From: an uncultured Candidatus Binatia bacterium
GTDB taxonomy: Bacteria > Desulfobacterota > Binatia > UBA9968 > CAXXLF01
NCBI GenBank assembly: GCA_965218425.1
Contig: OZ244621.1
Location: 353,368 to 417,367 of the forward strand
Direction: 5' to 3'
Length of the DNA stretch: 64,000 nt
Of this stretch, positions 25,475-46,804 are shown piece after piece. The notes beneath the pieces were generated by a model. It was not told the origin of the DNA. It saw nothing but the letters and a program-made list of their open reading frames with translations, and did no database searches. The position numbers were made by a program, and so were the translations under genes. Within the stretch, counting starts at the first letter, position 1, and each line of letters opens with the position of its first letter.

Positions 25475-26461
25475 TCAACTGAGATAACCGCGTTCCTTCC
25501 AGAAGCGCTCCGCCGCAGGGTGCAGCGGGATATCCAGCGGACCTTCCGGCGTATCCTTGCACATACGCTCTAACGGCAACGGCCCCTCACCCTGCCATGG
25601 GATATGCTCCTTCCTCGCCTCCAAAGCCTGGCAAAATGACGTGATCACCTCGTCGGACACGTCGGCATGGGTATAGATGGGCCAGCCGCTGAAATCCAGG
25701 GCCAACACATCCCCCGGCAGCTTGGACCACCTTTCCTTCTTGATGTAGGAGCGTCGAAACCCCATGGACTCCAGCTTTTCAACCACCGACTCCTGCAGGG
25801 GCAAGACCCTCATCCCCGCATCCAGGGCAAGCCCCACCCAGGCATTGACCGCCTCGTCGAAGATGGCGTCCACATCACCCCGTTTGACGAGATCGATGCG
25901 GGTCAACTCATAATTCTTACCCGAAGTGGAAATGCCGTTGGGGAGCCCGGGGTCATAGCGCACTTGGCCACCCCAGGACTCAATGTCCTCAAGAGAGAAC
26001 CCCATGGTTTCCAGCACGACTTTTTCGAAAAAGTGATTGCTATGATCCCGTTGCCCTCGGAGGGAAACACGAAGGGGATACTTCTTGTCCCGAATATCCT
26101 CCAAGGAAGTCAAACCAGTGCTCTCACTGACCGCAAAGGCGTAGGAATCAAGGGAGGGTATAACGGCAATTGCCCGCAAGGGAATAGGCTCCTTGAAGGG
26201 TCCCGTCCCTCGTAGAGCAAGGGTAACAGGCTCCGCGGGGTTGATGATCGCCAGTTGAACCTCCCCCCGGGCCACCCCGTCGATGGCCTCAAAACTATCA
26301 CTCCCGAACAGGACCACGGGTTTTGCGTCCCCCCCTTGAGGTCTGAGGGTTACGCTAGCCTGTTGCAAGGGCCAACTGTTATCGGCGGCCAACTGGGCGG
26401 CCATCTCCAATACGAGTTTAGAACGGGTTACCACGGGACGCGCATAACGAGGGCGCTGCTG
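25475..26461 (-). CDS. TAXI-family (TRAP-type solute receptor-like) SBP-fold protein without signal peptide
   Basis: The C-terminal hallmark WPIYTHADVSDEVITSFCQALEA...PLHPAAERFWKERGYLS matches TAXI receptors. The N-terminus MQQRPRYARPVVTRSKLVLEMAAQLAA lacks a hydrophobic signal peptide. RBS gaaaggagag upstream of ATG 26461. Confidence 0.55.
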   Translation of the reverse strand, partial: QQRPRYARPVVTRSKLVLEMAAQLAADNSWPLQQASVTLRPQGGDAKPVVLFGSDSFEAIDGVARGEVQLAIINPAEPVTLALRGTGPFKEPIPLRAIAVIPSLDSYAFAVSESTGLTSLEDIRDKKYPLRVSLRGQRDHSNHFFEKVVLETMGFSLEDIESWGGQVRYDPGLPNGISTSGKNYELTRIDLVKRGDVDAIFDEAVNAWVGLALDAGMRVLPLQESVVEKLESMGFRRSYIKKERWSKLPGDVLALDFSGWPIYTHADVSDEVITSFCQALEARKEHIPWQGEGPLPLERMCKDTPEGPLDIPLHPAAERFWKERGYLS

Positions 26462-26489
26462 CATAAGAACTCTCCTTTCGAACTTCCGA

Positions 26490-28151
26490 TCAACGCTGAG
26501 ACGGAAATCCTTCCTTAGAGTCGAGGGCCACATCCACGAGGGTGGGCCTGCCGGAATCCAGTCCTTTCTGGATGGCAGAGTGGATCTCATCCGGGTGTTC
26601 CACCCGGATCCCTTCGCATTTAAATTCCTTTGCGATATTGGCAAAGTTCAATCCAGGGACGAAGTTCATCTCCTGGCTAAGGGCATACTCCCTCATATGG
26701 TTTTTTTCCAGGAGGTAGGTTCCATTATTGAAAACCACCACCACAATCGGGATGTTATATCGGGCCGCCACCTCCAATTCGGAGATGATGCCGCACATGA
26801 TCCCGCCGTCACCTTCAAAACAGATGACCCTCTTATCCGGCGCCGCGAGCTTGGCCCCGATGGCCATGGGGATGCCGGTCCCAATGGCACCTGTCCCCCT
26901 GGGTGTAATAAAGGTGGGGCCTGATTCCACAAAGGTGTGGCTGGTGGCCCACATGAAAGGGCTTGACCCGTCGGATACCAAAATCGTATCGGGTCCAATA
27001 AATTCCTGCACCTCCCTCATCAAACGGGCCGGATGAATGGGCACCGTATTGGAGTTGGCCCGCGCCGCGTTGTCCTCACGCCACAGATGGAGCAGACTTC
27101 TGATTTCATCGGCGCGTGACATTTTCGGCCGAAATGACTGTCTCCTAAGTTCGTTGACGAGGGCTTCCAGGGCAAGCCTTGCATCGGCAATCATCCCCAC
27201 TCGAGTCTGGTAGTTTCTGCCGATCTCCTTCTGGTCAATGTCGATATGAATAAGGGTGGAACCTGGATCAGGGACGGACCAACGGGCGGTGGCCATCTCA
27301 TTGGTGCGGGTTCCCACCAGCAGCACAGCGTCCGAGTCTTTGACAATCCGTTCCGACACCCGTCCCCTGCCCAACCAACCACCCACCACGGCACCCGTGG
27401 GACCGGCGCTAAGGGGGTGCTTCTCCGGGAAGGCGCCCTTCCCTGAAATGGTTGTGGCCACGGGCAATTGACCCAACTCGGCGAGTTCCTTCAGCGCATC
27501 CCACCCACGGGAAAGGTTTACCCCACCGCCGGCAATGATGCAGGGCCGTCGTGCCTGGCGCAAAGTCTCGACGGCCTTCTCAACCTGGCCTGGTTCAGGA
27601 GATATCCTCATTGCCGGGAAGCTGGCATATTCTTCTTCCGCAAAGGGTTCTGCGTCGATATGATGCTGAGGAGAAAAAGTCGCCCCCATGCCTCGTATGT
27701 TTAAGACCACGGGACCGGGTCTACCCGTGGTGGCCATGCGAAAGGCCTTGCGAAGCATTTCCGGTGCCTTGGCCATGTCCGTGATGTCACCAATCCATTT
27801 TGACACGGGCTTGACCATTCCCATCTGGTCCTGCTCGTAGAGTGCGTTCTTCCCCTCACTGGACGTGGCTAGACCTTCCATGAGGACTATGATGGGAACC
27901 GATGAGTTCCACGCCTCGGTCAGTGCCATGATGACGTTCATGGTGCCCGGCCGGTTCAAGGTAATGACTCCGGGCTTCCCACTGATACGCGCATAGCCAT
28001 AGGCCATGAGGCCGGCGGAGGTTTCGTGATGGATATTGATGGGCCTGATCTTGGACAGGTCCATTTCGGGATAAACACGCATCCCAAAGACCTGCGGAAT
28101 ACCGTATTGAATCAGCATCTCGGTGAAGTGGTTATAGACATGGGCTTTCAT
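26490..28151 (-). CDS. thiamine diphosphate-dependent enzyme (acetolactate synthase / benzoylformate decarboxylase / Xsc family)
   Basis: 553 aa with three-domain ALS-like layout and the ThDP GDGG...NN motif (CFEGDGGIMCGIISELEVAARYNIPIVVVVFNNGTY). Confidence 0.7.
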   Translation of the reverse strand: MKAHVYNHFTEMLIQYGIPQVFGMRVYPEMDLSKIRPINIHHETSAGLMAYGYARISGKPGVITLNRPGTMNVIMALTEAWNSSVPIIVLMEGLATSSEGKNALYEQDQMGMVKPVSKWIGDITDMAKAPEMLRKAFRMATTGRPGPVVLNIRGMGATFSPQHHIDAEPFAEEEYASFPAMRISPEPGQVEKAVETLRQARRPCIIAGGGVNLSRGWDALKELAELGQLPVATTISGKGAFPEKHPLSAGPTGAVVGGWLGRGRVSERIVKDSDAVLLVGTRTNEMATARWSVPDPGSTLIHIDIDQKEIGRNYQTRVGMIADARLALEALVNELRRQSFRPKMSRADEIRSLLHLWREDNAARANSNTVPIHPARLMREVQEFIGPDTILVSDGSSPFMWATSHTFVESGPTFITPRGTGAIGTGIPMAIGAKLAAPDKRVICFEGDGGIMCGIISELEVAARYNIPIVVVVFNNGTYLLEKNHMREYALSQEMNFVPGLNFANIAKEFKCEGIRVEHPDEIHSAIQKGLDSGRPTLVDVALDSKEGFPSQR

Positions 28152-28235: not shown

Positions 28236-29444
28236 TTACGCGGCCGCGCCCGCTATCTTTTGCAGCGCCGGGCGCAGTGGAGACGGCACCTGGTGCTTCA
28301 TGATAATCTCCTTGCGCTCGCAGCGAGAATCGATCATCGCAATACATGCCTCCAAGGTTGCTCGGCCCCAGCGCACGTCGGGAAAGGACGGCTGACTCTC
28401 TCTGATGGCATCCACCAACGCCTGGATCTCCCCGGCACGTAGCTCTCGTTCAGTCATGAGAACTTCTTCCCGCCCTTTCTCCGTATACACGTATAGGCCA
28501 TCGGGGGATTGGCGGATATCTCCGTTCTCACAGCTTACGATCATGAGCCCGAAGAAATCCTGTTTTCTCTCTCCTCCAGCGCTAAACGCCTCGATGGAGT
28601 ACTGAGGAAGGTTATAAAACTCTTGTGCCGCAATCGGCCCTTTCGCTCTCGGCTTGGGTCCTAACATGGTGTTCTCGTCCACACGTCTCCCCCCTTCTCC
28701 GATCCCCCATGTTAGCTCGCGGATATCAAAATTCGCATAGCCGTTGAAGCTAACCATCGCCGTGGGCCCATCCTCAAAATCGATAAACGCGTGGTAGTCA
28801 CCCTCGACATCGTAGCTAGGGTGCCACTTTCCCGCCGTTCCACGCACACCACGAATCATCCCTCCAGCCAGATAGCGCACCACGTCCATCTGATGCGGTC
28901 CCTGCCGAAAGACAGAGCCACCCCCGCGCTTTGGGTCTAGTGTATGTGCCTCCCAGGGCCGTTGAATCCAGTCATTATACATCCACGTGTTGATGTGAAT
29001 GATCCTCCCCAGACGCCCGCTGGCAATCATGTCCCCCATTTTTCGAACGTAAGGGCGGTGAATGCGGCTGTGCCCTTGGACATACTTAACGCCATTACGC
29101 TCAATGGCATCAACCATGCGGTTCGCCTCGTCAATCGAGATGGCCATAGGCTTCTCACATATAACGTGCTTACCATGGTCCGCGGAGATGATCGTATGTT
29201 CGGCATGGAAATTATTGGGCGTGGCCACCCATACAGCATCCACGGGGCCGTGCTTGCACATATCCTCGATTTGCGTGAAGCCCTCGACGCCGAAGCGCTT
29301 TTTAAACCGGTCCACTTCGTCGGCTCGAATATCGCATACGGCCGTAAGCTCCGCACCTTCCGTTTGCTCGATACTCCCAAGCACCTGGCGCGCCGCGATG
29401 CCAATCCCGACGATCCCCACTCGGACAACAGTGTTCTCAGCCAT
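28236..29444 (-). CDS. Gfo/Idh/MocA-family NAD(P)-dependent oxidoreductase (cis-dihydrodiol dehydrogenase-like, Pht4/OphB-type)
   Basis: N-terminal Rossmann VRVGIVGIGIAARQVLGSIEQTEGAELTAVCD and a GFO_IDH_MocA C-terminal domain. Sits immediately downstream of two Rieske oxygenase genes. Confidence 0.65.
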   Translation of the reverse strand: MAENTVVRVGIVGIGIAARQVLGSIEQTEGAELTAVCDIRADEVDRFKKRFGVEGFTQIEDMCKHGPVDAVWVATPNNFHAEHTIISADHGKHVICEKPMAISIDEANRMVDAIERNGVKYVQGHSRIHRPYVRKMGDMIASGRLGRIIHINTWMYNDWIQRPWEAHTLDPKRGGGSVFRQGPHQMDVVRYLAGGMIRGVRGTAGKWHPSYDVEGDYHAFIDFEDGPTAMVSFNGYANFDIRELTWGIGEGGRRVDENTMLGPKPRAKGPIAAQEFYNLPQYSIEAFSAGGERKQDFFGLMIVSCENGDIRQSPDGLYVYTEKGREEVLMTERELRAGEIQALVDAIRESQPSFPDVRWGRATLEACIAMIDSRCERKEIIMKHQVPSPLRPALQKIAGAAA

Positions 29445-29518: not shown

Positions 29519-30772
29519 TCATTCGGGACGCGGCCGGGCAGTGCCGAATGGGACTTCAAAAACCTCGTGTCTGCTATCAAAGACTTCCTTCTTGGTTCGT
29601 ACGCGGCTCAGTTCGATTCCCTTCCGTCGCGCTCCTGCGCGGGTGTCCCGCTCTGAGCACCATCCTTCGAGGTCGATGGCCTTGTTGTCGCCCAGGTCAC
29701 GAATGATGTTCATAGGTTCCCCACCCCGCTCAACCACCTCGATCTGTTCCTTCAGCATCTTGCGATACATGATTATTCCGCGATCGGACATCCCCACGTG
29801 CTCTTCATCCCGCCCATAGATCTGCCCCTGGGTTTCCCAGGCCATCTTGTCCTGGCTATAGAAGGTATTCATTGTATATTCGCCATCAGGATAGGTCTGA
29901 GGCGGGGGGTCTTCCAGCGGCGGTTCCTCCGGTTGCGCAACAGGCTCCCCATCGTCGCTGGGTTTGAAAAGGACGACGTAGATTTCCGTATGGGTATCGT
30001 CCACGGGAACCCGCCAGTGCATAGCGCTCCAGATATCCGATTGCCGAAACATAGTAGGAAAGACGAGTGGATTGCCCCATCCGGATCCGGCAGTATCGCC
30101 TTCGTACTCCCAGCTTTTCAGTAGACCCCACTGAAACGGCTGGAAACCATACCGGGCAAACGGACGTCCCAAAAACCCGGTGGACATGGTGCTTCGTCCC
30201 GCCTTTTTGAAGGCATAGGCGTGGAGGATTGAGGTATGGACAAAATCCATTGTGTTCTCGACTGCCTGTAGCCAATTGCAGTTCAACGTCTCCTGGCGTT
30301 CGATTCTCCGGTGACCCCGGTCCCAAACGAGGATGTCCCACCGCGGTAACAAGGGAGCCGGTTCCGGTCCCATGTAGGCGAACAAGAGACCTGCGAGTTT
30401 CTGGACCGGGTAGGCCCTATGCCGGATACTTTCCTTGAATTTAGGATTGGGCTCGAAGGGCTGCTCAAGACAACTGCCGGAGCGGTCGTAAAGCCACCCG
30501 TGGTAAGGACACCTTAGGCCACCATTTTCCAGGAAACCATAGTACAGGGAAGTGCCCCTATGGGAGCAGTGCTCTTCCAGGAGACCGAATTCGCCCTTCT
30601 CGTCCCGAAACAGCACCAGATCCTCTCCCAAGACCTTGACCCGTTTTTTCGGACGGTCAGCGGTTAGCTCGCTTGCCGCTGTCACCGGATGCCAGTAGCG
30701 GCGCATCAGATTTCCACACGGGGTACCAGGTCCCACTTTGGTCAACAGATCGTTTTCATCCTTGGTAAGCAT
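29519..30772 (-). CDS. Rieske [2Fe-2S] non-heme iron oxygenase alpha subunit (phthalate dioxygenase/VanA/KshA-type), paralog 1
   Basis: Rieske CSHRGTSL...CPYHGW, mononuclear iron motif DFVHTSILH, N-terminus MLTKDENDLLTKVGPGTPCGNLMRRYWHP. Start taken at ATG 30772; the ORF is also open from a TTG at 30790. Confidence 0.8.
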   Translation of the reverse strand: MLTKDENDLLTKVGPGTPCGNLMRRYWHPVTAASELTADRPKKRVKVLGEDLVLFRDEKGEFGLLEEHCSHRGTSLYYGFLENGGLRCPYHGWLYDRSGSCLEQPFEPNPKFKESIRHRAYPVQKLAGLLFAYMGPEPAPLLPRWDILVWDRGHRRIERQETLNCNWLQAVENTMDFVHTSILHAYAFKKAGRSTMSTGFLGRPFARYGFQPFQWGLLKSWEYEGDTAGSGWGNPLVFPTMFRQSDIWSAMHWRVPVDDTHTEIYVVLFKPSDDGEPVAQPEEPPLEDPPPQTYPDGEYTMNTFYSQDKMAWETQGQIYGRDEEHVGMSDRGIIMYRKMLKEQIEVVERGGEPMNIIRDLGDNKAIDLEGWCSERDTRAGARRKGIELSRVRTKKEVFDSRHEVFEVPFGTARPRPE

Positions 30773-30786
30773 GCTCTTTGCTTCGC

Positions 30787-32127
30787 TCAACTACCGTTAC
30801 GGTTAACCTTCGCGGCATCGATCTTTGGCCTCGCCGCACCGTAGGGAACATCGACTATCTCATGCCGATTGTCAAAGATCTCATCCTTCGATTTCCCATG
30901 CGATTTGCCGCCGGCCCAATAGGGGTCCCGGTAAAGATCGGCTTCGTTTTGCCACCCCGCAAGCTCGATGCAGACGTTCTTCTCGGGGTCGCGTACAAGC
31001 CCCCAGGGATCCCCGCCCTGACCAACGATCTCGATCTGTTCCTTAAGCATTTTACGGAACATGATGATTCCCCGATCGGATTCACCCAGGTGCTCCTTTG
31101 AACGGTCAAATAGCGCACCTTGGGTCTCCCAGGCCATCTTGTCATGACTGAAGAAGGTATCCATTGTGTATTCGGCGTTGGGGAGCATCTGCGGTGGCAT
31201 GAATTGGACTAAAGGGTCCTCTCCCTCCTCCACCTCCTGACCATCCTCGCTCGGGCGGAAATGGACAATGATGAGCTCTGTACGGTAATCGTCAATAGGA
31301 ACGCGCCAGTGCATCTGAGCAGTAATGCGCAGCATGTTGGGAAAAATTAATGGATGCCCCCAGCCTTCACTGCCATGCTTGCCTCCATAAACCCAACTTT
31401 TTAACAGCCCCCACTCGAAGGGCTGGAACCCATAACTTTCAAACGGACGTCCATAACCAATTTCATCGGCAGGCGATCTGTTGCCATCCGGCTGGTATCC
31501 CAAGGGAAGGTTACCAGGGCTCATTACCCCCTGTTCTGATTGAGCTCGGGCCCTTTGTCTCAGTGTGTGGGAATGGAGGAAAAAAGTGTGGGTTACATCC
31601 ACGGAATTTTCTTCTGCCTGGAGCCAGTTACAGTTGAGGGTCTCTTGACGCAGGACGCTACGGTGACCATTTTTCCATGCTAGTATATCCCAACGGGGCA
31701 GGAGGGGCTTGCGGTCTGGGGGACCCATGTAGGTGAATAATAACCCGCCCAGTTTCGCAACCGGATAGGCCGGGTGTCTCACCTGTTCCCGAAACTTCGG
31801 GTTGGGCTCGAAAGGCTGCTCTAAACATTTTCCGGCCTTGTCGTAAAGCCAGCCGTGATAGGGACAACGGATGGAGCCACTTTCTATGAATCCATAGTAA
31901 AGAGACGTCCCACGGTGGGCACAGTGCTCACCAATAAGACCATAGCCACCTTTTTGGTCGCGAAAAAGGACAAGCTCTTCGCCCAGAATCTTGATTCGCT
32001 TCTTGGGCCGATCCTCCGTCAACTCCCTGGCTCCGGCTATGGGATGCCAGTAACGGCGCAGCAACTCACCGCACGGAGTCCCGCGGCCTACGCGGGTTAA
32101 AAGCTGGTTTTCTTCATTTGAGAGCAT
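30787..32127 (-). CDS. Rieske non-heme iron oxygenase alpha subunit, paralog 2
   Basis: CAHRGTSL...CPYHGW, VDVTHTFFLH, N-terminus MLSNEENQLLTRVGRGTPCGELLRRYWHP. 14 nt upstream of paralog 1. Confidence 0.8.
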   Translation of the reverse strand: MLSNEENQLLTRVGRGTPCGELLRRYWHPIAGARELTEDRPKKRIKILGEELVLFRDQKGGYGLIGEHCAHRGTSLYYGFIESGSIRCPYHGWLYDKAGKCLEQPFEPNPKFREQVRHPAYPVAKLGGLLFTYMGPPDRKPLLPRWDILAWKNGHRSVLRQETLNCNWLQAEENSVDVTHTFFLHSHTLRQRARAQSEQGVMSPGNLPLGYQPDGNRSPADEIGYGRPFESYGFQPFEWGLLKSWVYGGKHGSEGWGHPLIFPNMLRITAQMHWRVPIDDYRTELIIVHFRPSEDGQEVEEGEDPLVQFMPPQMLPNAEYTMDTFFSHDKMAWETQGALFDRSKEHLGESDRGIIMFRKMLKEQIEIVGQGGDPWGLVRDPEKNVCIELAGWQNEADLYRDPYWAGGKSHGKSKDEIFDNRHEIVDVPYGAARPKIDAAKVNRNGS

Positions 32128-32277: not shown

Positions 32278-33564
32278 TCAAGCACCCGGCCGCTTTGCCG
32301 CTACTTCTGAAGCACGCCGTTCGACAGGGTCTATCTCATTGAGAGCAAAACGTTTAAGACCCGGGTAAAGGTAGTTGGTCCACAGCATGGATCCACCGAT
32401 AACAAGTCCGGCCGAAAATACGGCCAAACGGCCACCGAGAAGGGCTATGAACATTCCCGTGGGGGCCTGGCCAAGATGATTCAATCCCCTGAAGGTCATC
32501 TGGGAGATACTCATGACCCTGCCTCTCATTCCCTCCGTGCTCGAATACTGGAAGATGACGTTCCGCGTGGTTCCCCACATGGTGTCGCTCATGCCCAGGA
32601 TCAACAACAGAAAAAGCGAGAAGGGCCATGCCTGAGAGTACGCAAAAAGTAAGTAGGTCAACACATGGATGGTCCCAAGAACATAGAGGGTTCTTCCCGG
32701 GCGGCGAAAATTCCCCATGAAAATGAGTGCCAGCGCACCAGTGATGCTGCCCACTCCCCTGGCAGACTGCATGAGGCCGAATCCCCCTGCGCCAACCTGC
32801 AATATGTCTTTGGCAAATACCGTAAGAAACACCTGGTTCAGTGAAAAGAAGGATGCGAAAGCTTCCAACAGCAATGCTCCGCAGATGACCGGCTGGCGGC
32901 GGACGTAATTGAGGCCTTCAAAAACACTTCGGAGCAGTTGGGTGCGCCCCGCGCTCCCCACAGAAGTGGCACGTATGAAAGGAAGGGTGAACACCACCAC
33001 AAGATGAAATAGGGAATTTGCGGTATAAGCCCCGCCAATGCCCCAAGCGGTGATGATAATTCCCCCAAGGGCAGGACCAATGAGAGCGCTACCCCTAAAG
33101 AGTATCGAATTCATGGCCACCGCATTGGCAAGGGCACTTCTGGGTATAAGGCTGGGGAGCATGGCGCTTTGAGCAGGGCTCCCAACCGCCTGAACAGTGG
33201 CATTGGCAGCTGTAATAAGGTAGATGGACCATGCCGTAAGGGTACCGGTAAACGCGAGGGCCGCCAGAATAAACGACAGCACCACCTGGATGGAAGTGGT
33301 GATGAGGACGATAATTTTCCGCTCATAGCGGTCCGCAAACACGCCGCCAAAAAAACCAAAGCCGAAGGAGGGGGCGGCACGAAAAAGACCGTTTAAACCA
33401 ACACCGATGGCAGAGCCGGTGATCTCATAAAGCGCCCAGCTCTGAGCCATGATCTGCATCCAGACGCCACAGTGGGAGACAAATTGGCTCCACCAATAGA
33501 GGCGAAAATCACGGTAACCGAATGCTGGAAAGTAACCCTGCGCCGGAGGAGATTCAGGAGACAT
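32278..33564 (-). CDS. MFS transporter
   Basis: 428 aa with about 12 TM helices. Heads the minus-strand Rieske gene block. Confidence 0.7.
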   Translation of the reverse strand: MSPESPPAQGYFPAFGYRDFRLYWWSQFVSHCGVWMQIMAQSWALYEITGSAIGVGLNGLFRAAPSFGFGFFGGVFADRYERKIIVLITTSIQVVLSFILAALAFTGTLTAWSIYLITAANATVQAVGSPAQSAMLPSLIPRSALANAVAMNSILFRGSALIGPALGGIIITAWGIGGAYTANSLFHLVVVFTLPFIRATSVGSAGRTQLLRSVFEGLNYVRRQPVICGALLLEAFASFFSLNQVFLTVFAKDILQVGAGGFGLMQSARGVGSITGALALIFMGNFRRPGRTLYVLGTIHVLTYLLFAYSQAWPFSLFLLLILGMSDTMWGTTRNVIFQYSSTEGMRGRVMSISQMTFRGLNHLGQAPTGMFIALLGGRLAVFSAGLVIGGSMLWTNYLYPGLKRFALNEIDPVERRASEVAAKRPGA

Positions 33565-37528: not shown

Positions 37529-38290
37529 CTATACCCAACCCCGATTCCATCGCTCGCCTTTTTTAACCTTGTCGGCGTAATAGTTCCACTCGGCAGAGTG
37601 TTGGGCCGGCGCCGCTCCCCTCCCAAGCTCCCGAGCACGCGCCATGAGCTTTGCCGAGGTGGCCTGAATGGACTGGATAAATTCCGGTGTTGGACCCGTG
37701 TACCCAAGCATGTGTGCCATGGCCTGCATTTTCGCAGTGCGCTCTAAATAGAGGGCGTTCATGCAGGCTTCGTCCACCGTCTTTCCAACCGAGACGATGC
37801 CATGTCCCTTGATGATCACCGCGGGGGCCTGACCAAGGGTCTTGGCCAAGTCCGCTCCCTCCTGCGCGTCAATGATAAAAATGGGGTCCGGATAGATGGG
37901 AACGCCTTTGCCGAATCGTTTCGACTGTTGGTGCATGTTATACACCGTCTTATCGGCCATACTGAGGGCAATACACATGGGTGCATGGGAATGAACGGCG
38001 GCGGTCACGTCTGGCCGGGCCTTGAATGCCTCGCTGTAGATGGCCGCCTCCATGGGTATGGTTCCAACACCGGACAGTTTGTTCAGCGAGTAGTCGAAGC
38101 GAACGAACCAGTCTTTGACTCCCGGCTCCTCCGGGGGGCGAAAAATCTTCACCGCGATGGATTCGGAATCCGGGATTCGGGTGGCCACGTGACCCCAGAT
38201 ATCCCCCATTTCCCATTCGAGGATCGACGAGGCAATCCTCAACTCTTCTTCCAATACATCAATGTCTGACATGCACCCCGCCTTTTGCAT
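37529..38290 (-). CDS. class II aldolase/adducin-family protein (3,4-dihydroxyphthalate decarboxylase / L-fuculose-phosphate aldolase-like)
   Basis: Metal-binding histidines in ...WGHVATRIP...AAVHSHAPMCIA...HGIVSVGKT. Its start overlaps the stop of the upstream SsuA-fold gene by 1 nt (TAATG). Confidence 0.65.
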   Translation of the reverse strand: MQKAGCMSDIDVLEEELRIASSILEWEMGDIWGHVATRIPDSESIAVKIFRPPEEPGVKDWFVRFDYSLNKLSGVGTIPMEAAIYSEAFKARPDVTAAVHSHAPMCIALSMADKTVYNMHQQSKRFGKGVPIYPDPIFIIDAQEGADLAKTLGQAPAVIIKGHGIVSVGKTVDEACMNALYLERTAKMQAMAHMLGYTGPTPEFIQSIQATSAKLMARARELGRGAAPAQHSAEWNYYADKVKKGERWNRGWV

Positions 38291-39252
38291 TATGTTTCAA
38301 GCGTGCCTGCCGCAAAGAAATCCTCTAATGCGAGCTTCTTGCTGGTGATGCCCTGCTCGGCATTATAGGTAAGATAGCTATCGATCATGTTCTTGTTTGC
38401 CCTGACCCCATATTTCCAAGGGTCTCCCCAATCCTTTATCTGTTCCTCCAGGCGCTCTCGTAGATAGACCACTGAGAATCCCGCCCGGTCGTTCAGGATA
38501 TCCTCATAGGCCAGCTTTTTTGCCTCCTCAAAGGCGGTAAAGAGCTTGCCGGCCAGATCCGGATTCCCACGGTCCAGTTTCTTGCTCATTACGATCTGGT
38601 GCATGGTGGCGTAAATGCCGGTCTCCCGATACAGCTGCAGGTCCTCCTCCACGTAATTGGGAAATAGACGCATAATCGACGGGTCTTGCTCGAGAGTACG
38701 GAAAGCCTTACCGTCTGAAATATCGGTGATGATGGCGTCTACCTCTCCATCCAGCAGGCGGTTTATTGGAGTCTTCTTGGGGTCCTCTGCAGCTTCAACC
38801 TTGGGTTCGGTTTTATGGAGGGGAAAGACCCTGCGTGGGATCGAGGTCACCCACCGCAGCTTGGAGGTGTCCACGCCATGCCTGTGTTGAAGCAGGCCCT
38901 GCAACCAGATGGTAATGGACGTTGGATAGGAGTTGCTCCCGATACGCTTGCCCTCGAGGTCCTTGGGTGAGTTGATCCCTCGGTCCGCGCGGCAAAACAG
39001 AAAGGTGTAAACCGGTTTCCTCTTTGAGAATACCGGCAGGCCGATCAGTTCCCAACCTGCTTCGATGGCTGGCAACACGTAGCCCGCGTTCAAGTCACAG
39101 AGCCCAAAAGCACCTTCTCGAAGCTCCGGTACGTCGTTGAAAACCATGGAGCTGGTGCGCACAGGCTTTAACTCAACACCCTCGATTTTCACCCGCCCTT
39201 CGAGCAAGGGCATGGTGTGATCGTAACGCATTATTGGAAACGGTACTTCCAT
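38290..39252 (-). CDS. cytoplasmic SsuA/NMT1-fold (COG0715-like) protein of the 4,5-dihydroxyphthalate decarboxylase-like family, copy 1
   Basis: SBP type II fold signature (LEGKRIGSNSYPTSITIWLQGLL...GVD...GEVDAII). No signal peptide. Start taken at ATG 39252 (MEVPFPIMRYD...), which has a G-rich RBS; the ORF is open to 39309. Confidence 0.55.
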   Translation of the reverse strand: MEVPFPIMRYDHTMPLLEGRVKIEGVELKPVRTSSMVFNDVPELREGAFGLCDLNAGYVLPAIEAGWELIGLPVFSKRKPVYTFLFCRADRGINSPKDLEGKRIGSNSYPTSITIWLQGLLQHRHGVDTSKLRWVTSIPRRVFPLHKTEPKVEAAEDPKKTPINRLLDGEVDAIITDISDGKAFRTLEQDPSIMRLFPNYVEEDLQLYRETGIYATMHQIVMSKKLDRGNPDLAGKLFTAFEEAKKLAYEDILNDRAGFSVVYLRERLEEQIKDWGDPWKYGVRANKNMIDSYLTYNAEQGITSKKLALEDFFAAGTLET

Positions 39253-39629: not shown

Positions 39630-40847
39630 TCACTTGACGAGATAGGGCCAGTGCTCACGCCAGCTTTCCTCTGCAGGGAACACTTCATGGACGGTGTCCA
39701 CATGGGTCATGTCGTTTTTTGCGGCATCCGTAATGATATGAGGGGGCTCCGTACCGTTCTGAAATGACTTCACCGCATTTAGAAGATAGTTACGCACCGC
39801 GATGACGGCTTTGTCGCTCATGCCCAAGCGCTCCTTCGAACGATCGAAGATGCCAGAATAGGACATGGTCTCCGTAGCGCAGGCATCCTGCACCATGATC
39901 TCCTTGATGCCGGTGAAATTCTGACTTCGCATCATCTCCGCGTCCTGGAGGTAGTCGTTGCTGAGATTGGGGATTTTCCGATAATCAGGACCGATGGAGG
40001 ACCGACGGTGCATATCCTCCGGCGTGACGGGCCGGTTCAGATAACCAAGGTCGTATCTCCACGTACGGGTGTCGTTGATGGGCGCATACATGTGAATTTC
40101 CCGGTTAAAAACCGGCACCCAAACCTCCACGGGCATAACAAAGCTCGAGACGCGTATATAGTGTTCCTTTGGATCGGGCTGGGATCGAGCGGCGATTAAA
40201 CGCACCCCGAAGTCAGTCTCCTCTGTCTCGTATTCGGCTGTCAGGTCCTGGAGCACGGGTCTACCTCGACCGAACTTTTGGGCACCATGGTGCATGATGG
40301 CCACATGGGCGGTATCACACTCCCCTTCCAGTCCCTGTAACCAATTGCATTCCAGGAGGACCTTGGTGACGTAAACATTCTCCTTTGGCGCCTGCGTAAA
40401 GCGATAGTTGGGAAAAAGAGGCATTTTCTCCCTGGGACCCAGGTAAGCCCAGATAATTCCGGCAACCTCATGCGTTGGATAGGACAGGTGTTTGACTTTA
40501 TCCCTGATGACACTGCGGTCTGGTTCTCCGGGGGTATCTAGTACGTTTCCCTCCACGTCATATTTCCAACCATGATAGATACAGGTCAGGCCACACTCTT
40601 CGTTGCGTGCATAAAACAGCGAGGTTCCGCGATGGGAACAATGTTCGCCCAGCAATCCGACCCTGCCCTCACTGTCTCGGAAGGCCACCAATTCTTCGCC
40701 CAGTAACCGCACACGCACGGGACGGCCGTCTCGCTCGGAGATTTCTTCCGAGAGCAGCGCAGGCAGCCAGTAGCGCCGCATCAATTGACCAAGCACCGCC
40801 CCGTTGTCCGTCCTGGTAATGAGATCATTGTCTTCTTTGCTCAGCAT
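39630..40847 (-). CDS. Rieske non-heme iron oxygenase alpha subunit, paralog 4
   Basis: CSHRGTSL...CIYHGW, CDTAHVAIMHHG, N-terminus MLSKEDNDLITRTDNGAVLGQLMRRYWLP. Confidence 0.8.
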   Translation of the reverse strand: MLSKEDNDLITRTDNGAVLGQLMRRYWLPALLSEEISERDGRPVRVRLLGEELVAFRDSEGRVGLLGEHCSHRGTSLFYARNEECGLTCIYHGWKYDVEGNVLDTPGEPDRSVIRDKVKHLSYPTHEVAGIIWAYLGPREKMPLFPNYRFTQAPKENVYVTKVLLECNWLQGLEGECDTAHVAIMHHGAQKFGRGRPVLQDLTAEYETEETDFGVRLIAARSQPDPKEHYIRVSSFVMPVEVWVPVFNREIHMYAPINDTRTWRYDLGYLNRPVTPEDMHRRSSIGPDYRKIPNLSNDYLQDAEMMRSQNFTGIKEIMVQDACATETMSYSGIFDRSKERLGMSDKAVIAVRNYLLNAVKSFQNGTEPPHIITDAAKNDMTHVDTVHEVFPAEESWREHWPYLVK

Positions 40848-40995: not shown

Positions 40996-42024
40996 TTAAG
41001 TGTCCCTTACGGCCGTGTGAAATAGATCGTCTACACTAGACCGCCCCTGGGTTAAGCCCTGCTCCGCGGAGCTGTGAAACATCATCTCCAGCATTTTTCG
41101 ATTGGCCTTCAAGCCCAATGGAAAGGGATCTTCTCCAAAGATCTTGGTTTGCCTTCTAATATCGTCTGCCAAGAACAATAGATATCCAGCCCCCTGTTGT
41201 TTTGCCCTTTCATAGGCTACTTCCTTGCTTTTCTGAAATGCCTTGAAGAGTTCCATGGCCACCCAGGGCTCTTTTTCCAAAACCTTGTTCTTGACTATCA
41301 CCATATGGTTTACGGGGATCACCCCCGTTTTGCCATAGAAATCACCAATAATCTGCCGGCCGAAATCGGGAAATAATTTTCGGATTCTTGGATTATCCTC
41401 GATGATGGTGCCTCCATGACGGTCGATAGGCTTGGCCACGCCAGGGTACTGGCGCGCAATCACACCATAGGCAGCGTCCAGCTCTCCCCTGTCTAGCATC
41501 ACATCAAGAGACTGATCTTCCTTGAGCCAGTGAAGGTCAATACCGGTGGGCGGGGTCTCGGCCAGCCCCAGCTCACCTCCGTGGCTGTGCTCAACTGTTC
41601 GGCCGTTGAACCAGACAATATCTTTGGCGCCAATTCCATAGAGCTCCTTCAGCACCGCCTTCATCCAGACCGCCGCAGTCATATTGTAATCGGGGACGCC
41701 CACTCTTTTGCCTGCGAAGTCTTTTAGCTCGTTGATCTTGGCCCCCGTATTCACAAACAAGGTAAGCCAGACAAAGGCCTTGGAGAGAAAGACCGGCAGA
41801 CCGCTCCATTGCCATCGGGTACCGTCGCCCCGCTCCTTGGTCATGGAAAAACTGGAGATGGACATTTCAGACACGTCGAATTCTTCATTTTTTAGATTGC
41901 GGTAAAAGAGGTTTCCCGGATCAATGATGACAAACTCCAGCTCGATGCCTTTTGGTTTTACAGTACCGTCGGCTAAAGGCTGTATGCGGGGATTGTTGGA
42001 AAATCCGATGGTAAGCTTGAGCAT
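40996..42024 (-). CDS. cytoplasmic SsuA/NMT1-fold protein (4,5-dihydroxyphthalate decarboxylase-like family), copy 2
   Basis: MLKLTIGFSNNPRIQPLADG... starts directly in a beta-strand with no signal peptide. LKDFAGKRVGVPDYNMTAAVWMKAVLKELYGIGAKDIVW fits the SsuA-like fold. Confidence 0.55.
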   Translation of the reverse strand: MLKLTIGFSNNPRIQPLADGTVKPKGIELEFVIIDPGNLFYRNLKNEEFDVSEMSISSFSMTKERGDGTRWQWSGLPVFLSKAFVWLTLFVNTGAKINELKDFAGKRVGVPDYNMTAAVWMKAVLKELYGIGAKDIVWFNGRTVEHSHGGELGLAETPPTGIDLHWLKEDQSLDVMLDRGELDAAYGVIARQYPGVAKPIDRHGGTIIEDNPRIRKLFPDFGRQIIGDFYGKTGVIPVNHMVIVKNKVLEKEPWVAMELFKAFQKSKEVAYERAKQQGAGYLLFLADDIRRQTKIFGEDPFPLGLKANRKMLEMMFHSSAEQGLTQGRSSVDDLFHTAVRDT

Positions 42025-42759: not shown

Positions 42760-43707
42760 GTGATTCTAATCATTGGTGGCATGGGATTCATCGGTCTGAA
42801 TACCGCTCTCCGTCTGCTGGACGTGGGAGAGAGTGTTGTCATTACGCAGTACAGCATGCGTCGAGTGCCCGCCGTTCTTGAGCCGGAGTTGGATAAACGG
42901 GCCTTTGTTGCACCAATGGACGTGACAAAAGGCTATGAGGTGATGGACGTTGTTCACCGATACAAAGTGGAGAGCATCATCTCATTTGCGGCCCCTCCCG
43001 CCCGAGGCATCAGCGCTCAGGAAGATTACCGCATCTATACGGACGGGCTACAGAACACCCTCGAGGCGGCACGGGTTTTCGGCCTGCACAGGGTATCCCT
43101 GGCCAGTTCCACCTCGGTGTACGGCAGCCTTCAGGAAGGGCCCTTCCGGGAGGACATGCCGCTACCGGTTCAGGCCAAGACCCAAATAGAGGCGTTCAAA
43201 AAAGCCATGGAGGTCCACGCATTCCACTATTCAACTCGGATCGGTCTAGACTTGGTTGCGCTCCGCATCGGCAGCATCTACGGGCCCCACTACTACAGCA
43301 TGTTCAACCCCATGAGTCGCATGTGCCAGGCGGCGTTGAAGGGTTCAGACCCCGACTTCTCCGATCGCCCCGCCGGCTCCATACGCGAGGATGACGAAGG
43401 CGATTGGACCTATGTCGCGGATCTAGCCAGAGGTATCGAGCTGGTACACAGGGCGGGAAAGCTTTCCCACAACACTTATAACGTAGGCTCAGGCAAGGCC
43501 ACTTCCACCAGGCGCATATTTGAAGCGGTGCAAAAGATCATACCAGGTGCGCGCTGCTCTGCTCTCAAACCCGGGCGAAGCGGCGCCATGCCCATAAACC
43601 CGGTTATGGACTTAAGCCGAATTAGCAAGGATGTCGGCTACGAACCTGAGTACGATATCGACTCCGGTATGGCGGCCTACGTGGAACATCTCAAGGGACA
43701 GCCCTAA
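42760..43707 (+). CDS. NAD-dependent epimerase/dehydratase (extended SDR) family protein
   Basis: N-terminal ILIIGGMGFIGLNTALRLL Rossmann motif. 315 aa. Confidence 0.7.
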   Translation: MILIIGGMGFIGLNTALRLLDVGESVVITQYSMRRVPAVLEPELDKRAFVAPMDVTKGYEVMDVVHRYKVESIISFAAPPARGISAQEDYRIYTDGLQNTLEAARVFGLHRVSLASSTSVYGSLQEGPFREDMPLPVQAKTQIEAFKKAMEVHAFHYSTRIGLDLVALRIGSIYGPHYYSMFNPMSRMCQAALKGSDPDFSDRPAGSIREDDEGDWTYVADLARGIELVHRAGKLSHNTYNVGSGKATSTRRIFEAVQKIIPGARCSALKPGRSGAMPINPVMDLSRISKDVGYEPEYDIDSGMAAYVEHLKGQP

Positions 43708-43753: not shown

Positions 43754-45076
43754 TCACGATTCCGCTTGATTTACACCGACACCTTCCCATCGTGAGGCGG
43801 AAAGGATGTCACGATAGGCGTCGAGCCAATGGGTTCCTTCATCGGCCACAAAATGGCCGCCACGAACCCGGTCATAGTATTCCGGGTGATCTGCGCTGGG
43901 GGGCAGGGTCTTATCCTTCTCGTAAGCAAGCGCGCTCCGAATCAAGAGACGACGCACCCGGGCAATCATAATGTCGCTAGGGGCCAGATGCTCTATGGTG
44001 CGGTCGAGGATGGCTCCCATGCTCTCCTGGATCGCCTGGTCCTGCATTTGGACTCCTTCAATTCCGGTATAGCTTTGGGTACGCTGGACCTCGCGGTCAA
44101 TACCATAGTCGTTAGTTGCGTTGAGGGAGAGCCGCCAGCGACCATACCAATCCGTGGTGTTGGGGAGATAGGGATAGTTTCGTGAGGCGCCGGCAATCTC
44201 ACCGTCGCGGACGGGTCGGCCTTGATAAGGATAGGCTCCCTGCTTGATGAGCTCCACGATCATGGTGTGAGTGTCGTCCATAGGCACATAGGCGCGAGTC
44301 AACACATTGGTTTGCAATGAATTGATGGGGGGCATGGTCCAGAAAGGAAAAAGGAAATGGCCGAACCGCCAGTAGGTCTGTCCCTCATGGGCCGGTCGGT
44401 GGGCGGCGTAGATGTAGCCGTAATCGGTTTCCTGGATTTTGTATTCCGGCGCCCGGTTAGCAACCACGAACTGTTGTTGAGCGTCTGGCTGAAAGGCGCT
44501 GCGGTCGATCTTACCGAAATGCATAATCCCCACGTGGGAGGTATCCAGCTCCCCCTCCAACCCCTGGAGCCAGTTGGCCTCCCGCTGGGTAAAACGGATG
44601 CTGAGCTGATCCTCTGGCACTAACGTGGATTCCACAGGGGGAAAGGCGGGAGGAGCCTCCTGGCGCTCACCCATGTAAACATAGACAACCCCGTTGCGCT
44701 CCACAATCTTGTAGGCCCCGGCTTTCACCTTGTGTTTGAAATCTAAATCCGGCGGCAAATTGGCTTGATCGACGCAATTGCCTCGCACGTCGAACTTCCA
44801 TCCGTGATAGACGCATCGGATTCCGTCCTCTTCGTTCCTACCAAAAAAGAACGAGGCGCCGCGGTGCGGGCAGCGGTGGTCCATGATACCCGCTCGACCC
44901 GAGGAATCGCGAAACGCGATGAGCTTCTCCCCCAGGAGCACCAGCCGCATGGGATCGCCGTCAGCTTTGAGCTCCGCAGACATGGCCGCGGGGATCCAGA
45001 ATTGCCGCATTAACTCCCCCATGGGCGTACCACGCCCAACCCGGGTCAGGATCTCGTTATCGCGTATGTTGGTCAT
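43754..45076 (-). CDS. Rieske non-heme iron oxygenase alpha subunit, paralog 5
   Basis: CPHRGASF...CVYHGW, LDTSHVGIMHFG, N-terminus MTNIRDNEILTRVGRGTPMGELMRQFWIP. Its start overlaps the nitroreductase stop by 4 nt. Confidence 0.8.
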   Translation of the reverse strand: MTNIRDNEILTRVGRGTPMGELMRQFWIPAAMSAELKADGDPMRLVLLGEKLIAFRDSSGRAGIMDHRCPHRGASFFFGRNEEDGIRCVYHGWKFDVRGNCVDQANLPPDLDFKHKVKAGAYKIVERNGVVYVYMGERQEAPPAFPPVESTLVPEDQLSIRFTQREANWLQGLEGELDTSHVGIMHFGKIDRSAFQPDAQQQFVVANRAPEYKIQETDYGYIYAAHRPAHEGQTYWRFGHFLFPFWTMPPINSLQTNVLTRAYVPMDDTHTMIVELIKQGAYPYQGRPVRDGEIAGASRNYPYLPNTTDWYGRWRLSLNATNDYGIDREVQRTQSYTGIEGVQMQDQAIQESMGAILDRTIEHLAPSDIMIARVRRLLIRSALAYEKDKTLPPSADHPEYYDRVRGGHFVADEGTHWLDAYRDILSASRWEGVGVNQAES

Positions 45077-45809
45077 GACCGTCCCTCCTCCGGCACATCA
45101 CTTTCAGGCCGGGTTTTCCTCCCGTAGGAACCCCGACGGGTCAGGGTCATAAGGAACTTGTTAAAATCCTTTTCGCCTCTAAATTTCTTCATGTCATATT
45201 TCTCCGCGTGTGTCATACTGTCCAATGCACGACGAGGCGGAGGACTCACTGGTGTAGAAGGATACCCAATCGGGACAACGTGGTAGATTCTCAAAGGTTC
45301 GGGAACCCCCAACAGAACCTTGAGCATGGTAGACATATAAGGAGAGCTGGCGTCGCTCACGTATTGAGCCCCCAAGCCTAGGCTGGTGGCTGCAAGATGA
45401 ATCAAGAGAGTCGCATTGGCCAACCCACTGTAAAAATGGGAATCGGATTTTTCCTCCCGTGTTCGGATGGGATAGGATTCATTGACTCTGGGATCGCCGA
45501 GAACCACAATATGGACCGGCGCATTGCGAAACCCGGCCCCCGTCATCTTGATCTCCCCTCGCACGGCCATCTCCCTCTCTTTTTTATGCTCCAACTGCTT
45601 TAGGTATAGATCCGCGATTTTGTTTCTCGTTTCCTGATCTCGGACCACGATAAATTCCCAGGGTTGCCCATTGCCCCCCGACGGCGTCCAACTGGCAACC
45701 CCCAGTATTTTCTTGACCACCTCTTCGGGAACGTCCTTGTCCTTCTGATATCCCCGGATGCTTCGCCGGCTCATCACTAACTCGCAGAATTCATCAATAC
45801 TCGACATGG
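45073..45809 (-). CDS. nitroreductase-family FMN-dependent oxidoreductase
   Basis: LVMSRRSIRGYQKDKDVPEEVVKKILGVASWTPSGGNGQPWEFIVV is the classic nitroreductase N-terminus. Start taken at ATG 45809 (RBS ctggag upstream); the ORF is open to 45870. Confidence 0.7.
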
Positions 45810-45832
45810 CCATCTCCAGATCCGGATTCAAC

Positions 45833-46804
45833 CTAGAGTGTGAGACTCTCGGGAAAGAATAGATCCTCAAGCTTCGGTTTTTTGTCTAAAAGTCCCTGCT
45901 GGACCTGGTATTCCATGAGAGTCTCCAAGGACTTCCGGGCACAGGAATCCAACCTATAGGAGAATGGATCGTCCTCCATGACTTCCCGCTCCCATCGGGC
46001 TTCTTTCTTTTGCTCTTCGTTCATGTAATTCTCCGCCAGTGCACGGGCCTGTCGAAAGACCCTCAACAAACTCCCAACCACCCAAGGATGCCCGGCCACT
46101 AGTTCCTCCCGTAAAGCCAAACTATGGATGATGGGGATAACCTGAGTTCGCCGGAAGTAGTCTGCCTCCACTCGATACGAGTCTTCGAATAGGCGACGCA
46201 ACCTAGGATTTTTTGCCAGGCCAGGATAGGGCTCCAGCGCAGCGTCTATCTCACCCTCCTCCAGGAGCTCAATGGCATGCTCCCGAGTTCTCGGCGCCGA
46301 TATGAACTGCACCCGGACGCCTTCGGGTCGAAGGCGTAGCCCTTCCTCCCCCACATCGTTTTCGGCAACGTACCAATCCATCTCCTCTGGCCGTACCCCG
46401 TAATCGTTTTGCAGCAGTCCACGCACCCATACGGACGTGGATGCATTGTAACGATGCACGGTGACCCGTTTTCCTTTCAAATCCGACGGCTGGCGCACCG
46501 ATGAATTAGCCGGGCAATATATGCATCGATGCCGAAACTGGCGGGAAATAAATACTGGAAATATCTTTAAGGGCACTCCGCGGTTACGAGCCAGAATAAA
46601 CGAAGACGTGGAGCATTCCCCACCGGGAATCTTACCCTCAATGATCCATCGGTGGCGAGCACCCGTGTTGTCGTATCCCTGCGAAAACTGGCTCCGGCAC
46701 TCAAGATCGATGCCCTCTGGTTTAACATGCCCGTCGAACAGGGCCTGAGTGCGGTTATTTAGGGACAATCCTAAAGTGAGGGGCAAGGGCTTAGCCATGG
46801 TCAT
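45833..46804 (-). CDS. cytoplasmic SsuA/NMT1-fold protein (4,5-dihydroxyphthalate decarboxylase-like family), copy 3
   Basis: MTMAKPLPLTLGLSLNNRTQALFDGHVKPEGIDLE... with no signal peptide. DLKGKRVTVHRYNASTSVWVRGLLQNDYGV fits the SsuA-like fold. First gene of a three-gene overlapping operon. Confidence 0.55.
   Translation of the reverse strand: MTMAKPLPLTLGLSLNNRTQALFDGHVKPEGIDLECRSQFSQGYDNTGARHRWIIEGKIPGGECSTSSFILARNRGVPLKIFPVFISRQFRHRCIYCPANSSVRQPSDLKGKRVTVHRYNASTSVWVRGLLQNDYGVRPEEMDWYVAENDVGEEGLRLRPEGVRVQFISAPRTREHAIELLEEGEIDAALEPYPGLAKNPRLRRLFEDSYRVEADYFRRTQVIPIIHSLALREELVAGHPWVVGSLLRVFRQARALAENYMNEEQKKEARWEREVMEDDPFSYRLDSCARKSLETLMEYQVQQGLLDKKPKLEDLFFPESLTL

Follow-up and report, generated by a model that had tools for sequence, protein, structure and literature searches.

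Rieske oxygenase genes and signal-less binding-protein-fold genes in a Candidatus Binatia catabolic island: a known decarboxylase family in its usual company, and an unusual TAXI-like protein

Why should proteins with the fold of periplasmic transporter components, but no signal peptide, be encoded among aromatic-ring oxygenases? The question is raised by a 64,000-nucleotide stretch of DNA from an uncultured Candidatus Binatia bacterium (contig OZ244621.1, positions 353,368 to 417,367; the whole stretch is referred to below as the window), in which five Rieske oxygenase paralogs, R1 to R5, are found together with four substrate-binding protein (SBP)-fold proteins, A to D. The first-pass annotation of this DNA proposed that each SBP-fold protein is the specific partner of one oxygenase, perhaps a component that captures substrate in the cytoplasm and delivers it. 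We find that the observation is real but was over-read. By sequence, B, C and D belong to an established family of cytoplasmic enzymes, the 4,5-dihydroxyphthalate decarboxylases (Pht5/OphC, K04102), and they stand in the usual company of that family; nothing here overturns current understanding, and the unusual one of the four is the signal-less TAXI-like protein A. The reading that we favor, at a probability of roughly 60%, is that the genes form a catabolic cluster for carboxylated aromatics other than o-phthalate, made up of several diverged copies of the o-phthalate enzyme set. The list of open reading frames (ORFs) and Pfam scans agree in placing this 28-kb catabolic island at 19.8-47.9 kb of the window, and all nine genes that had been singled out are present, at the positions and in the orders first given:

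25475..26461, minus strand: protein A, signal-less TAXI-fold protein of 328 amino acids (Pfam NMT1_3)
29519..30772, minus strand: Rieske oxygenase R1 (Pfam Rieske and LigXa_C; motifs intact)
30787..32127, minus strand: Rieske oxygenase R2 (Pfam Rieske and LigXa_C; motifs intact)
36209..37471, plus strand: Rieske oxygenase R3, assigned to the phthalate dioxygenase family (LigXa_C, E = 1e-44); alone on the plus strand
38290..39252, minus strand: protein B, divergent predicted member of the 4,5-dihydroxyphthalate decarboxylase family (9jp7, E = 1.2e-33)
39630..40847, minus strand: Rieske oxygenase R4, assigned to the phthalate dioxygenase family (7fjl, E = 2.5e-84)
40996..42024, minus strand: protein C, predicted member of the 4,5-dihydroxyphthalate decarboxylase family (9jp7, E = 2.2e-47)
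43754..45076, minus strand: Rieske oxygenase R5, assigned to the phthalate dioxygenase family (LigXa_C, E = 4e-29)
45833..46804, minus strand: protein D, predicted member of the 4,5-dihydroxyphthalate decarboxylase family (9jp7, E = 6e-38)

The matches of B, C and D to 9jp7, the 4,5-dihydroxyphthalate decarboxylase of Comamonas testosteroni KF-1, are full-length, the three proteins being about 320-345 residues long, and homologues of C and D carry the name of this enzyme as their JGI label. For B, the most divergent of the three, comparison of an AlphaFold2 model (predicted local distance difference test score, pLDDT, 85.8) with 9jp7 gave template modelling (TM) scores of 0.82-0.84; the structures that rank next, at about 0.5, include members of Pfam DUF178 (by our reading the MqnA family) alongside Thi5 and SsuA. 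When 83 members of the family, 9jp7 among them, are aligned, 14 polar positions are at least 90% conserved (R64, E75, S77, S79, K124, Y131, T134, W138, W156, D199, N214, H242, W256 and D303 in 9jp7 numbering); C has the family residue at all 14, D at 13 (T134 is changed conservatively to Ser) and B at 8. The three do not cluster tightly with the characterised decarboxylases: they are 25-32% identical to one another and 30-31% identical to 9jp7, to which true plasmid orthologues are 58-78% identical. We infer that B, C and D are decarboxylases, and each paralog probably serves a different substrate.

That A to D are cytoplasmic is predicted from their N-termini. As a proxy for a signal peptide we took the maximum 12-residue hydropathy within the first 50 residues; the four proteins have maxima of 0.2-1.2 and none of 360 homologues (120 C-type, 120 D-type and 120 TAXI-like) exceeds 2.2, whereas true SBPs of the same window (1426-2511) and of related loci reach about 3.0 and have obvious signal sequences. 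The claim that the four lack signal peptides was thus borne out, and because the 360 homologues share this state it is a property of the families and not an artefact of gene calling. Revision of the start codons does not change the picture. Longer alternative starts add no hydrophobic segment (the extensions of A enter the preceding gene), the N-terminal sequences examined show no twin-arginine motif, and independent gene calls of a public contig with an identical copy of D agree on where B, C and D start. These observations leave hardly any credence for the idea that A to D are ordinary extracytoplasmic uptake binding proteins whose signal peptides were missed through wrong starts or unusual export, even though 'ABC transporter substrate-binding protein' and 'TAXI family TRAP transporter solute-binding subunit' are frequent public labels for such proteins; the N-terminal hydrophobic segment that they lack is present in the real SBPs of the same loci, and no ABC or TRAP permease gene adjoins the SBP-fold genes. 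To this extent the earlier statement that no permease genes accompany them stands. It does not hold more broadly, as an MFS permease gene (32278-33564) is the next gene on the upstream side of R2, and the window encodes an ABC system elsewhere (1426-4288, 8822-9895). B, C and D also fail as ABC-type SsuA/NMT1 proteins in that, beyond having neither a signal peptide nor adjoining ABC genes, they remain below the cut-off of 163.5 for NCBIfam SsuA_fam (C 24.7 bits, D 42.1 bits, B no match).

Enzymes derived from the periplasmic binding-protein fold are known from other pathways. Thi5/NMT1 HMP-P synthase, MqnA-type enzymes and HisG are all cytoplasmic, have no signal peptide and share the two-lobe binding-protein fold with the active site in the cleft between the lobes, and it is to these that we would liken the SBP-fold enzymes of the island. 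The likeness is one of fold; no sequence kinship beyond it is detectable and the chemistry differs. In addition to the Thi5 and DUF178 matches of B, Thi5 and ATP phosphoribosyltransferase are among the structural matches of A.

The oxygenases point away from o-phthalate itself. As claimed in the first-pass annotation, all five have intact Rieske (CxH...CxxH) and mononuclear iron (DxxHxxxxH) motifs, and the bridging Asp178 is included. Sequence comparison places R3 to R5 among the homo-oligomeric Rieske oxygenases of the phthalate dioxygenase family, with R1 and R2 as a more distant pair: identity to PDO_KF1 (7fjl), the phthalate dioxygenase of C. testosteroni KF-1, is 41% for R3, 40.5% for R4 (whose match spans residues 1-399) and 34% for R5, and 29-31% for R1 and R2, mainly in the N-terminal half to about residue 270. 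The R1/R2 pair shares 61% identity and the R3/R4 pair 58%. In phthalate dioxygenase, Arg207 and Arg244 bind the two carboxylates of phthalate and each is needed for turnover (PMC8649396). Arg231 and Arg244 are retained in R3 to R5, and R1 and R2 lack their equivalents; Arg207 is absent from all five, its place being taken by Leu (R1), Met (R2), Leu (R3), Pro (R4) and Phe (R5). Since this ortho-carboxylate-binding residue is missing, none of the five would be a true o-phthalate 4,5-dioxygenase. R1 to R4 have a His at the site of His257, which binds the meta-carboxylate in a model of isophthalate dioxygenase (PMC8649396), and the oxygenases probably bind an aromatic carboxylate.

The island has the same three protein families as the pht/oph operons of C. 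testosteroni KF-1, Burkholderia cepacia DBO1 and Polaromonas naphthalenivorans plasmid pPNAP04, namely a phthalate-dioxygenase-type Rieske oxygenase, a Gfo/Idh/MocA dihydrodiol dehydrogenase and a signal-less SBP-fold decarboxylase, and in operon and island alike a Rieske gene adjoins a decarboxylase gene. The Gfo/Idh/MocA protein of the island matches phthalate dihydrodiol dehydrogenase 7wzd with E = 3e-63 and is 35% identical to its counterpart in the Polaromonas pht operon; on pPNAP04 the Rieske oxygenase gene is followed, in this order, by those for the decarboxylase, a TTT binding protein, a PDR/VanB reductase and the Gfo/Idh/MocA protein. The phthalate-like route proposed in the first-pass annotation (Rieske dioxygenase, Gfo/Idh/MocA dehydrogenase, decarboxylase, LigB-type cleavage) therefore survives at the level of families, with 9jp7, 7fjl, 7wzd and the pPNAP04 gene order as reference points, and not as orthology, the identities being about 30%. 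The island also differs from these operons in what it holds: it has five oxygenases and three decarboxylase paralogs, 25-41% identical to the characterised enzymes; it is without Arg207, a PDR/VanB reductase and a TTT binding protein; and it interposes nitroreductase-like, class II aldolase-like and thiamine-diphosphate enzymes and the TAXI-like protein. It might be argued that the cluster is nevertheless a true o-phthalate (plasticiser) pathway whose gene copies are redundant, as the 4,5-dioxygenase route has three signature families, none of which is missing here, and automatic annotation labels such genes phthalate enzymes. We consider this very improbable given the replacement in all five oxygenases of an arginine required for phthalate turnover (PMC8649396), the identities of 30-41% to characterised enzymes, the missing PDR reductase and the fact that B, C and D are as distant from one another as from the Comamonas enzyme; phthalate as a substrate has already been doubted in the SAR202 literature. 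Automatic labels are misleading twice here, because the proteins are cytoplasmic and the oxygenases are without the phthalate-specific arginine: 'ABC/TRAP substrate-binding protein' suggests transport, and 'phthalate' suggests plastic degradation.

In the scheme that we favor, a Rieske oxygenase would hydroxylate or O-demethylate an aromatic carboxylate and the Gfo/Idh/MocA dehydrogenase would re-aromatise the diol where needed. The new hydroxyl would activate the ring, the neighbouring decarboxylase paralog would remove the carboxyl group, and ring cleavage by LigB-type and cupin enzymes would come last. Sequential catalysis is most likely the mechanism; the link between oxygenase and decarboxylase would be metabolic, as between consecutive enzymes of the canonical operon, and so not a physical delivery system.

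The contrasting possibility is that B, C and D are non-catalytic cytoplasmic binders, each of which hands substrate to one Rieske oxygenase. They do have the SsuA/NMT1 binding-protein fold and sit in operons with Rieske genes, and B is missing six residues conserved in the enzyme family, as a pure binder might be. We nevertheless regard delivery by these three proteins as highly unlikely. Our reasoning is that: (i) the founding member of the family, 9jp7, is a solved enzyme whose conserved polar residues are kept in full by C and all but one by D; (ii) adjacency of Rieske and decarboxylase genes is the normal layout of the pathway and, since the canonical Polaromonas operon shows it directly, the 'pairing' in the island would be this layout in several diverged versions; (iii) no significant excess of Rieske genes around C-type genes was seen in 64 genomes; (iv) a related genome has lost most of R5 and kept D intact; and (v) the pairing in the window is not one-to-one and its gene order is indistinguishable from random. 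A role as dedicated capture or delivery partner is thus unsupported for B, C and D by their conserved residues, by the census and by the loss of R5 with D kept.

With regard to the last of these points, five Rieske genes face four SBP-fold genes, R4 is flanked by both C and B, R3 has no partner on its strand, and R1 and R2 share A, which is three genes away from R1. Nor does the interleaving exceed chance. In random permutations of the 22 island genes, the mean number of adjacent Rieske/SBP pairs was 1.8, against 2 observed (P = 0.59), and the mean number of SBP genes with a Rieske gene within two genes was 2.6, against 3 observed (P = 0.58). The 'co-amplification' of the two kinds of gene fares no better: R3 and R4 share 58% identity, against 26% for B and C beside them. 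Recent tandem co-duplication of SBP/Rieske units was accordingly rejected, and because of the low identities among B, C and D and the unequal divergence of the R3/R4 and B/C pairs we regard the three as ancient paralogs and not as jointly duplicated units.

The orders D, nitroreductase, R5 and C, R4, B, aldolase are kept in two related metagenome-assembled genomes (MAGs; 88% and 75% nucleotide identity). In the MAG at 75% identity (locus L001, 8110-9630 and 13892-14320) a deletion of about 1 kb has taken the 3' part of R5, which is most of the gene, together with part of the epimerase gene; D is intact despite this loss, and the nitroreductase gene is split. Some other differences in spacing were seen. 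In L001 a 142-amino-acid ABC permease fragment is inserted between B and the aldolase gene, and the part of the island from R2 to Amidohydro_2, its left half, does not adjoin the MFS gene; in the MAG at 88% identity the spacer between R4 and B holds sequence that in the window is found at 35666-36014, upstream of R3. In the window a repeat of about 230 nucleotides (73% identity) lies upstream of B and of C (39369-39595 and 42313-42537, minus strand). It is absent from both related MAGs and has no Rfam match, and a structured RNA at this site was rejected, the folding z-scores being -1.9 and -1.6 and the two copies folding differently.

How regular the company of oxygenases is was judged from a census of the C clade, comprising loci from 80 species genomes with the target ORF called in 64; D-type contexts come from three look-ups. 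A Rieske gene is the immediate neighbour of the C-type gene in only 1 of the 64 loci and lies within two genes in 5. Rieske ORFs make up 6 of 353 ORFs within three genes and 4 of 588 farther away, a difference that is not significant, and a family-wide Rieske association of C-type genes was therefore rejected. What is enriched instead is Amidohydro_2, with 23 of 353 ORFs within three genes against 4 of 588 farther away (p = 3e-7); it adjoins the C-type gene in 18 of the 64 loci, in many phyla and often directly downstream. Instances of the latter order are L009, L018, L027, L028, L038, L045, L047, L057, L060-L062, L064 and L065 (match at about 10001-11030 of 21 kb). Further recurrent neighbours are fumarylacetoacetate hydrolase (often upstream) and a secreted NMT1 binding protein (often two genes downstream), which with the C-type and Amidohydro_2 genes make up a conserved module, and also CoA-transferase III. 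For D-type genes, two of the three look-ups show a convergent Rieske gene of LigXa_C type at a distance of two genes, and a class II aldolase gene is directly upstream in L092 and L093; the third look-up (L091, L092) has an ABC transporter upstream and RidA and Amidohydro_1 downstream. Since a Rieske neighbour is occasional and not regular, the decarboxylase family is best seen as a flexible catabolic building block. Nitroreductase-family genes adjoin C-type genes or lie near them in L067, L071 and L073 (Syntrophorhabdales, Thermodesulfobacteriota and deltaproteobacterial MAGs). These lineages are presumably anaerobic, so the association of the flavoprotein with C-type genes may not depend on oxygenases.

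Several findings weigh against our reading of the island. B replaces six of the 14 conserved residues (R64N, E75D, S77N, S79G, N214D and W256D); its clade is small (four or five of 1.84 billion cluster representatives exceed 43% identity) and has a conserved signature of its own at the replaced positions. The residue comparison is one of conservation, because we found no published catalytic residues or mechanism for this decarboxylase family in the literature, and a 2019 review describes the mechanistic class of the decarboxylase as unclear. The activity and substrates of B, C and D are extrapolated from a characterised enzyme to which they are only about 30% identical. C-type genes elsewhere keep company with Amidohydro_2, fumarylacetoacetate hydrolase and secreted NMT1 proteins and not with Rieske oxygenases, and several C-type loci belong to MAG lineages that we take to be anaerobic; for both reasons an oxygenase-coupled role would not be general for the C clade. 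Finally, there is one dihydrodiol dehydrogenase gene for five oxygenases, and no PDR/VanB-type or ferredoxin-NAD reductase was found among the scanned ORFs of the 64-kb window. As to electron supply, the nitroreductase/BluB-like flavoprotein (45073-45807), which is translationally coupled to R5, or the 4Fe-4S protein (47038-47856) could be a putative unconventional electron donor.

Protein A requires a different explanation. It passes Pfam NMT1_3 (42.8 bits against a gathering score of 27) and fails NCBIfam TIGR02122 (37 bits against a cut-off of 84.35). The top Foldseek matches of its AlphaFold2 model (pLDDT 92.9) are the TAXI SBPs 1us4, 8u79 and 4ddd (E about 1e-13, TM 0.5-0.6), to which it is 15-22% identical, and an amphipathic helix at residues 9-26 takes the place of a hydrophobic N-terminus. 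With TAXI SBPs (1us4, 8u79 and 8s4j, VcGluP) it shares the fold and a C-terminal HPAAE..W..GY motif; it differs from them in having no signal peptide, lipobox or nearby membrane partner and in falling below the NCBIfam TAXI cut-off. We found more than 2,300 homologues, and the 120 best are 278-336 residues long (mostly 304-336, median 324), none with a signal peptide. About 21 polar residues are invariant in 45 A-type sequences, including both His of RGQxDHxxH and one Cys. No TRAP membrane component (fused DctQM) is encoded in the window, and in 76 metagenome loci no neighbour with many transmembrane segments and more than 577 residues lies within three genes; the 12 membrane proteins seen are of MFS- or ABC-permease size. 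Judged from these features, A is a conserved signal-less offshoot of TAXI binding proteins inside catabolic operons. Such a family appears to be undescribed, because a 2025 paper on TAXI proteins holds all other SBPs to be secreted or lipid-anchored (PMC12344293).

In the 76 loci the neighbours of A-type genes are Zn-dehydrogenase (16), cupin (9), molybdenum enzyme (9), LigB (7) and thiamine-diphosphate enzyme (5), and UbiD decarboxylases flank A-type genes in two further loci. LigB-type ORFs occur within three genes in 7 loci, and 7 of the 10 such ORFs are of the same type as 24317..25450. Of 61 loci, 9 have a Rieske gene directly downstream of the A-type gene; the background is 5 of 192 ORFs. 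When homologues are collapsed at 70% identity, a Rieske gene holds this position in 2 of 16 clusters, 5 of 17 clusters have one no more than three genes away, and most of the Rieske-adjacent cases are in fact a single arrangement. This is a recurring soil-metagenome block in which a bicupin gene is followed by the signal-less TAXI-like gene, a Rieske gene of Aromatic_hydrox/VanA_C type, a secreted SBP_bac_1 gene and a LigB-like gene. The block is seen at L129, L131, L162, L163, L166 (3200-9076) and L172, and also at L116 and L122; at L166, alpha/beta hydrolase and Amidohydro_2 genes lie upstream of it.

What A does can be suggested at several strengths. Our guess is that it is an enzyme derived from a binding-protein fold; we know of no TAXI-derived enzyme that has been described. 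The invariant polar residues together with the varied neighbours argue against pathway-specific substrate capture and fit a fixed chemistry or a fixed ligand. A less probable alternative is that A is a cytoplasmic non-catalytic ligand binder (a carrier, an intermediate buffer or a sensor) serving catabolic enzymes, Rieske oxygenases included. Its TAXI fold with a high-confidence model, the lack of a signal peptide in all 120 homologues and the lack of a TRAP-type membrane protein within three genes in the 76 loci would all suit such a role, as would its constant position amid enzymes and the raised frequency of a Rieske gene directly downstream; cytoplasmic regulatory domains that resemble binding proteins exist, for example in NrtC and CmpC (matches 8wm7_C and 9u9z_C). 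We hold it to be unlikely in view of the small number of Rieske-adjacent clusters that remain after collapse, the variety of immediate neighbours (Zn-dehydrogenase, cupin, molybdenum enzyme, thiamine-diphosphate enzyme and UbiD) and the invariant polar residues, which suit a fixed chemistry or ligand better than capture of pathway-specific substrates. More improbable again is the version in which A, and possibly B, is a cytoplasmic binder that would pass an aromatic acid or a labile intermediate to Rieske or ring-cleavage enzymes. If this is true, a transporter binding-protein fold would be put to intracellular use in a way undescribed for oxygenase systems. The signal-less TAXI-like family in any event offers a clean example, open to experiment, of cytoplasmic metabolism having recruited a transporter component, and it merits follow-up together with the residue-swapped B clade.

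Expansions of the kind seen here have been reported in other lineages. Two papers on SAR202 Chloroflexota describe paralog expansions of ring oxygenases and ring decarboxylases (PMC6946804, PMC6123686), and a third, on sponge Dehalococcoidia, describes a K04102 decarboxylase that is highly expressed without a canonical phthalate dioxygenase (PMC13200403). Like these SAR202, marine and sponge Chloroflexota, the island has many 'phthalate dioxygenase' Rieske and K04102 genes clustered with ring-cleavage enzymes, and its multiple diverged copies are typical of the expansions reported in SAR202 and related lineages. In the portions consulted, the Chloroflexota papers count families per genome; the present work adds the operon arrangement, the B clade and the signal-less TAXI-like family. 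The decarboxylase family comprises about 1,300 clusters at 50% identity, decarboxylation of 4,5-dihydroxyphthalate to protocatechuate is the sole characterised activity that we found, and the family is abundant in lineages regarded as consumers of recalcitrant dissolved organic matter. Knowing which substrates the C, D and B clades act on would thus allow a better reading of ocean and soil carbon turnover. Homologues come chiefly from Dehalococcoidia/Chloroflexota, Binatia and Rokubacteria.

The remaining genes of the island are as follows:

19801..20739, minus strand: Amidohydro_2 protein of the LigW/ACMSD-type decarboxylase or hydratase family (PF04909, E = 3e-23); last member of a long minus-strand operon
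20776..21873, minus strand: bicupin, ring-cleavage dioxygenase-like (Pfam Cupin_2/Cupin_1)
21987..23153, minus strand: ornithine cyclodeaminase/mu-crystallin family (PF02423, E = 2e-36)
23157..24161, minus strand: LigB-type extradiol ring-cleavage dioxygenase (PF02900, E = 3e-27)
24317..25450, minus strand: LigB-like protein, partial domain match (PF02900, E = 2e-13)
26490..28151, minus strand: thiamine-diphosphate enzyme, 28 nucleotides upstream of A (Pfam TPP_enzyme_N/M/C)
28236..29444, minus strand: Gfo/Idh/MocA oxidoreductase (PDB 7wzd, E = 3e-63)
32278..33564, minus strand: MFS permease inside the cluster, directly upstream of R2 (Pfam MFS_3/MFS_1)
33707..35461, minus strand: second thiamine-diphosphate enzyme (Pfam)
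37529..38272, minus strand: class II aldolase/adducin family, tightly after B (PF00596)
42760..43707, plus strand: NAD-dependent epimerase/dehydratase (SDR) family (Pfam)
45073..45807, minus strand: nitroreductase/BluB-like flavoprotein, its stop overlapping the R5 start by 4 nucleotides (PF00881)
47038..47856, plus strand: 4Fe-4S dicluster protein of 272 amino acids, divergent from D (Pfam Fer4_7/Fer4)

The independent gene calls that confirmed the starts of B, C and D shorten the nitroreductase to 244 amino acids and the aldolase to 247, and we adopted these starts. The family of the latter includes decarboxylases of aromatic pathways, and the class II aldolase DhbB works as a decarboxylase (PMC6362003). 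R1 and R2 are arranged in tandem, their longest ORFs overlapping by 4 nucleotides (30787-30790) or, if ATG starts are used, leaving a gap of 14 nucleotides, and both have intact metal sites. Similar tandem Rieske pairs occur at loci L068 and L116, which could point to a mixed alpha/alpha' oligomer.

Outside the island, 4410-6744 and 9908-12180 hold two small cupin genes, a second ornithine-cyclodeaminase-like gene and two genes of the glyoxalase/extradiol-dioxygenase fold, which adjoin the ABC transporter (1426-4288, 8822-9895). At 60133-61979 are genes for a CoxG-like protein and for a molybdenum hydroxylase, of which the small (2Fe-2S) and the medium (FAD) subunit are encoded and no large subunit was seen among the scanned window ORFs. 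To the left of the island lie three tRNA genes (18128-18201, minus strand; 19082-19154 and 19159-19230, plus strand) and, farther left, two IS-type integrase genes (305-1324 and 13624-14703), an arrangement consistent with an acquired or rearranged genomic island.

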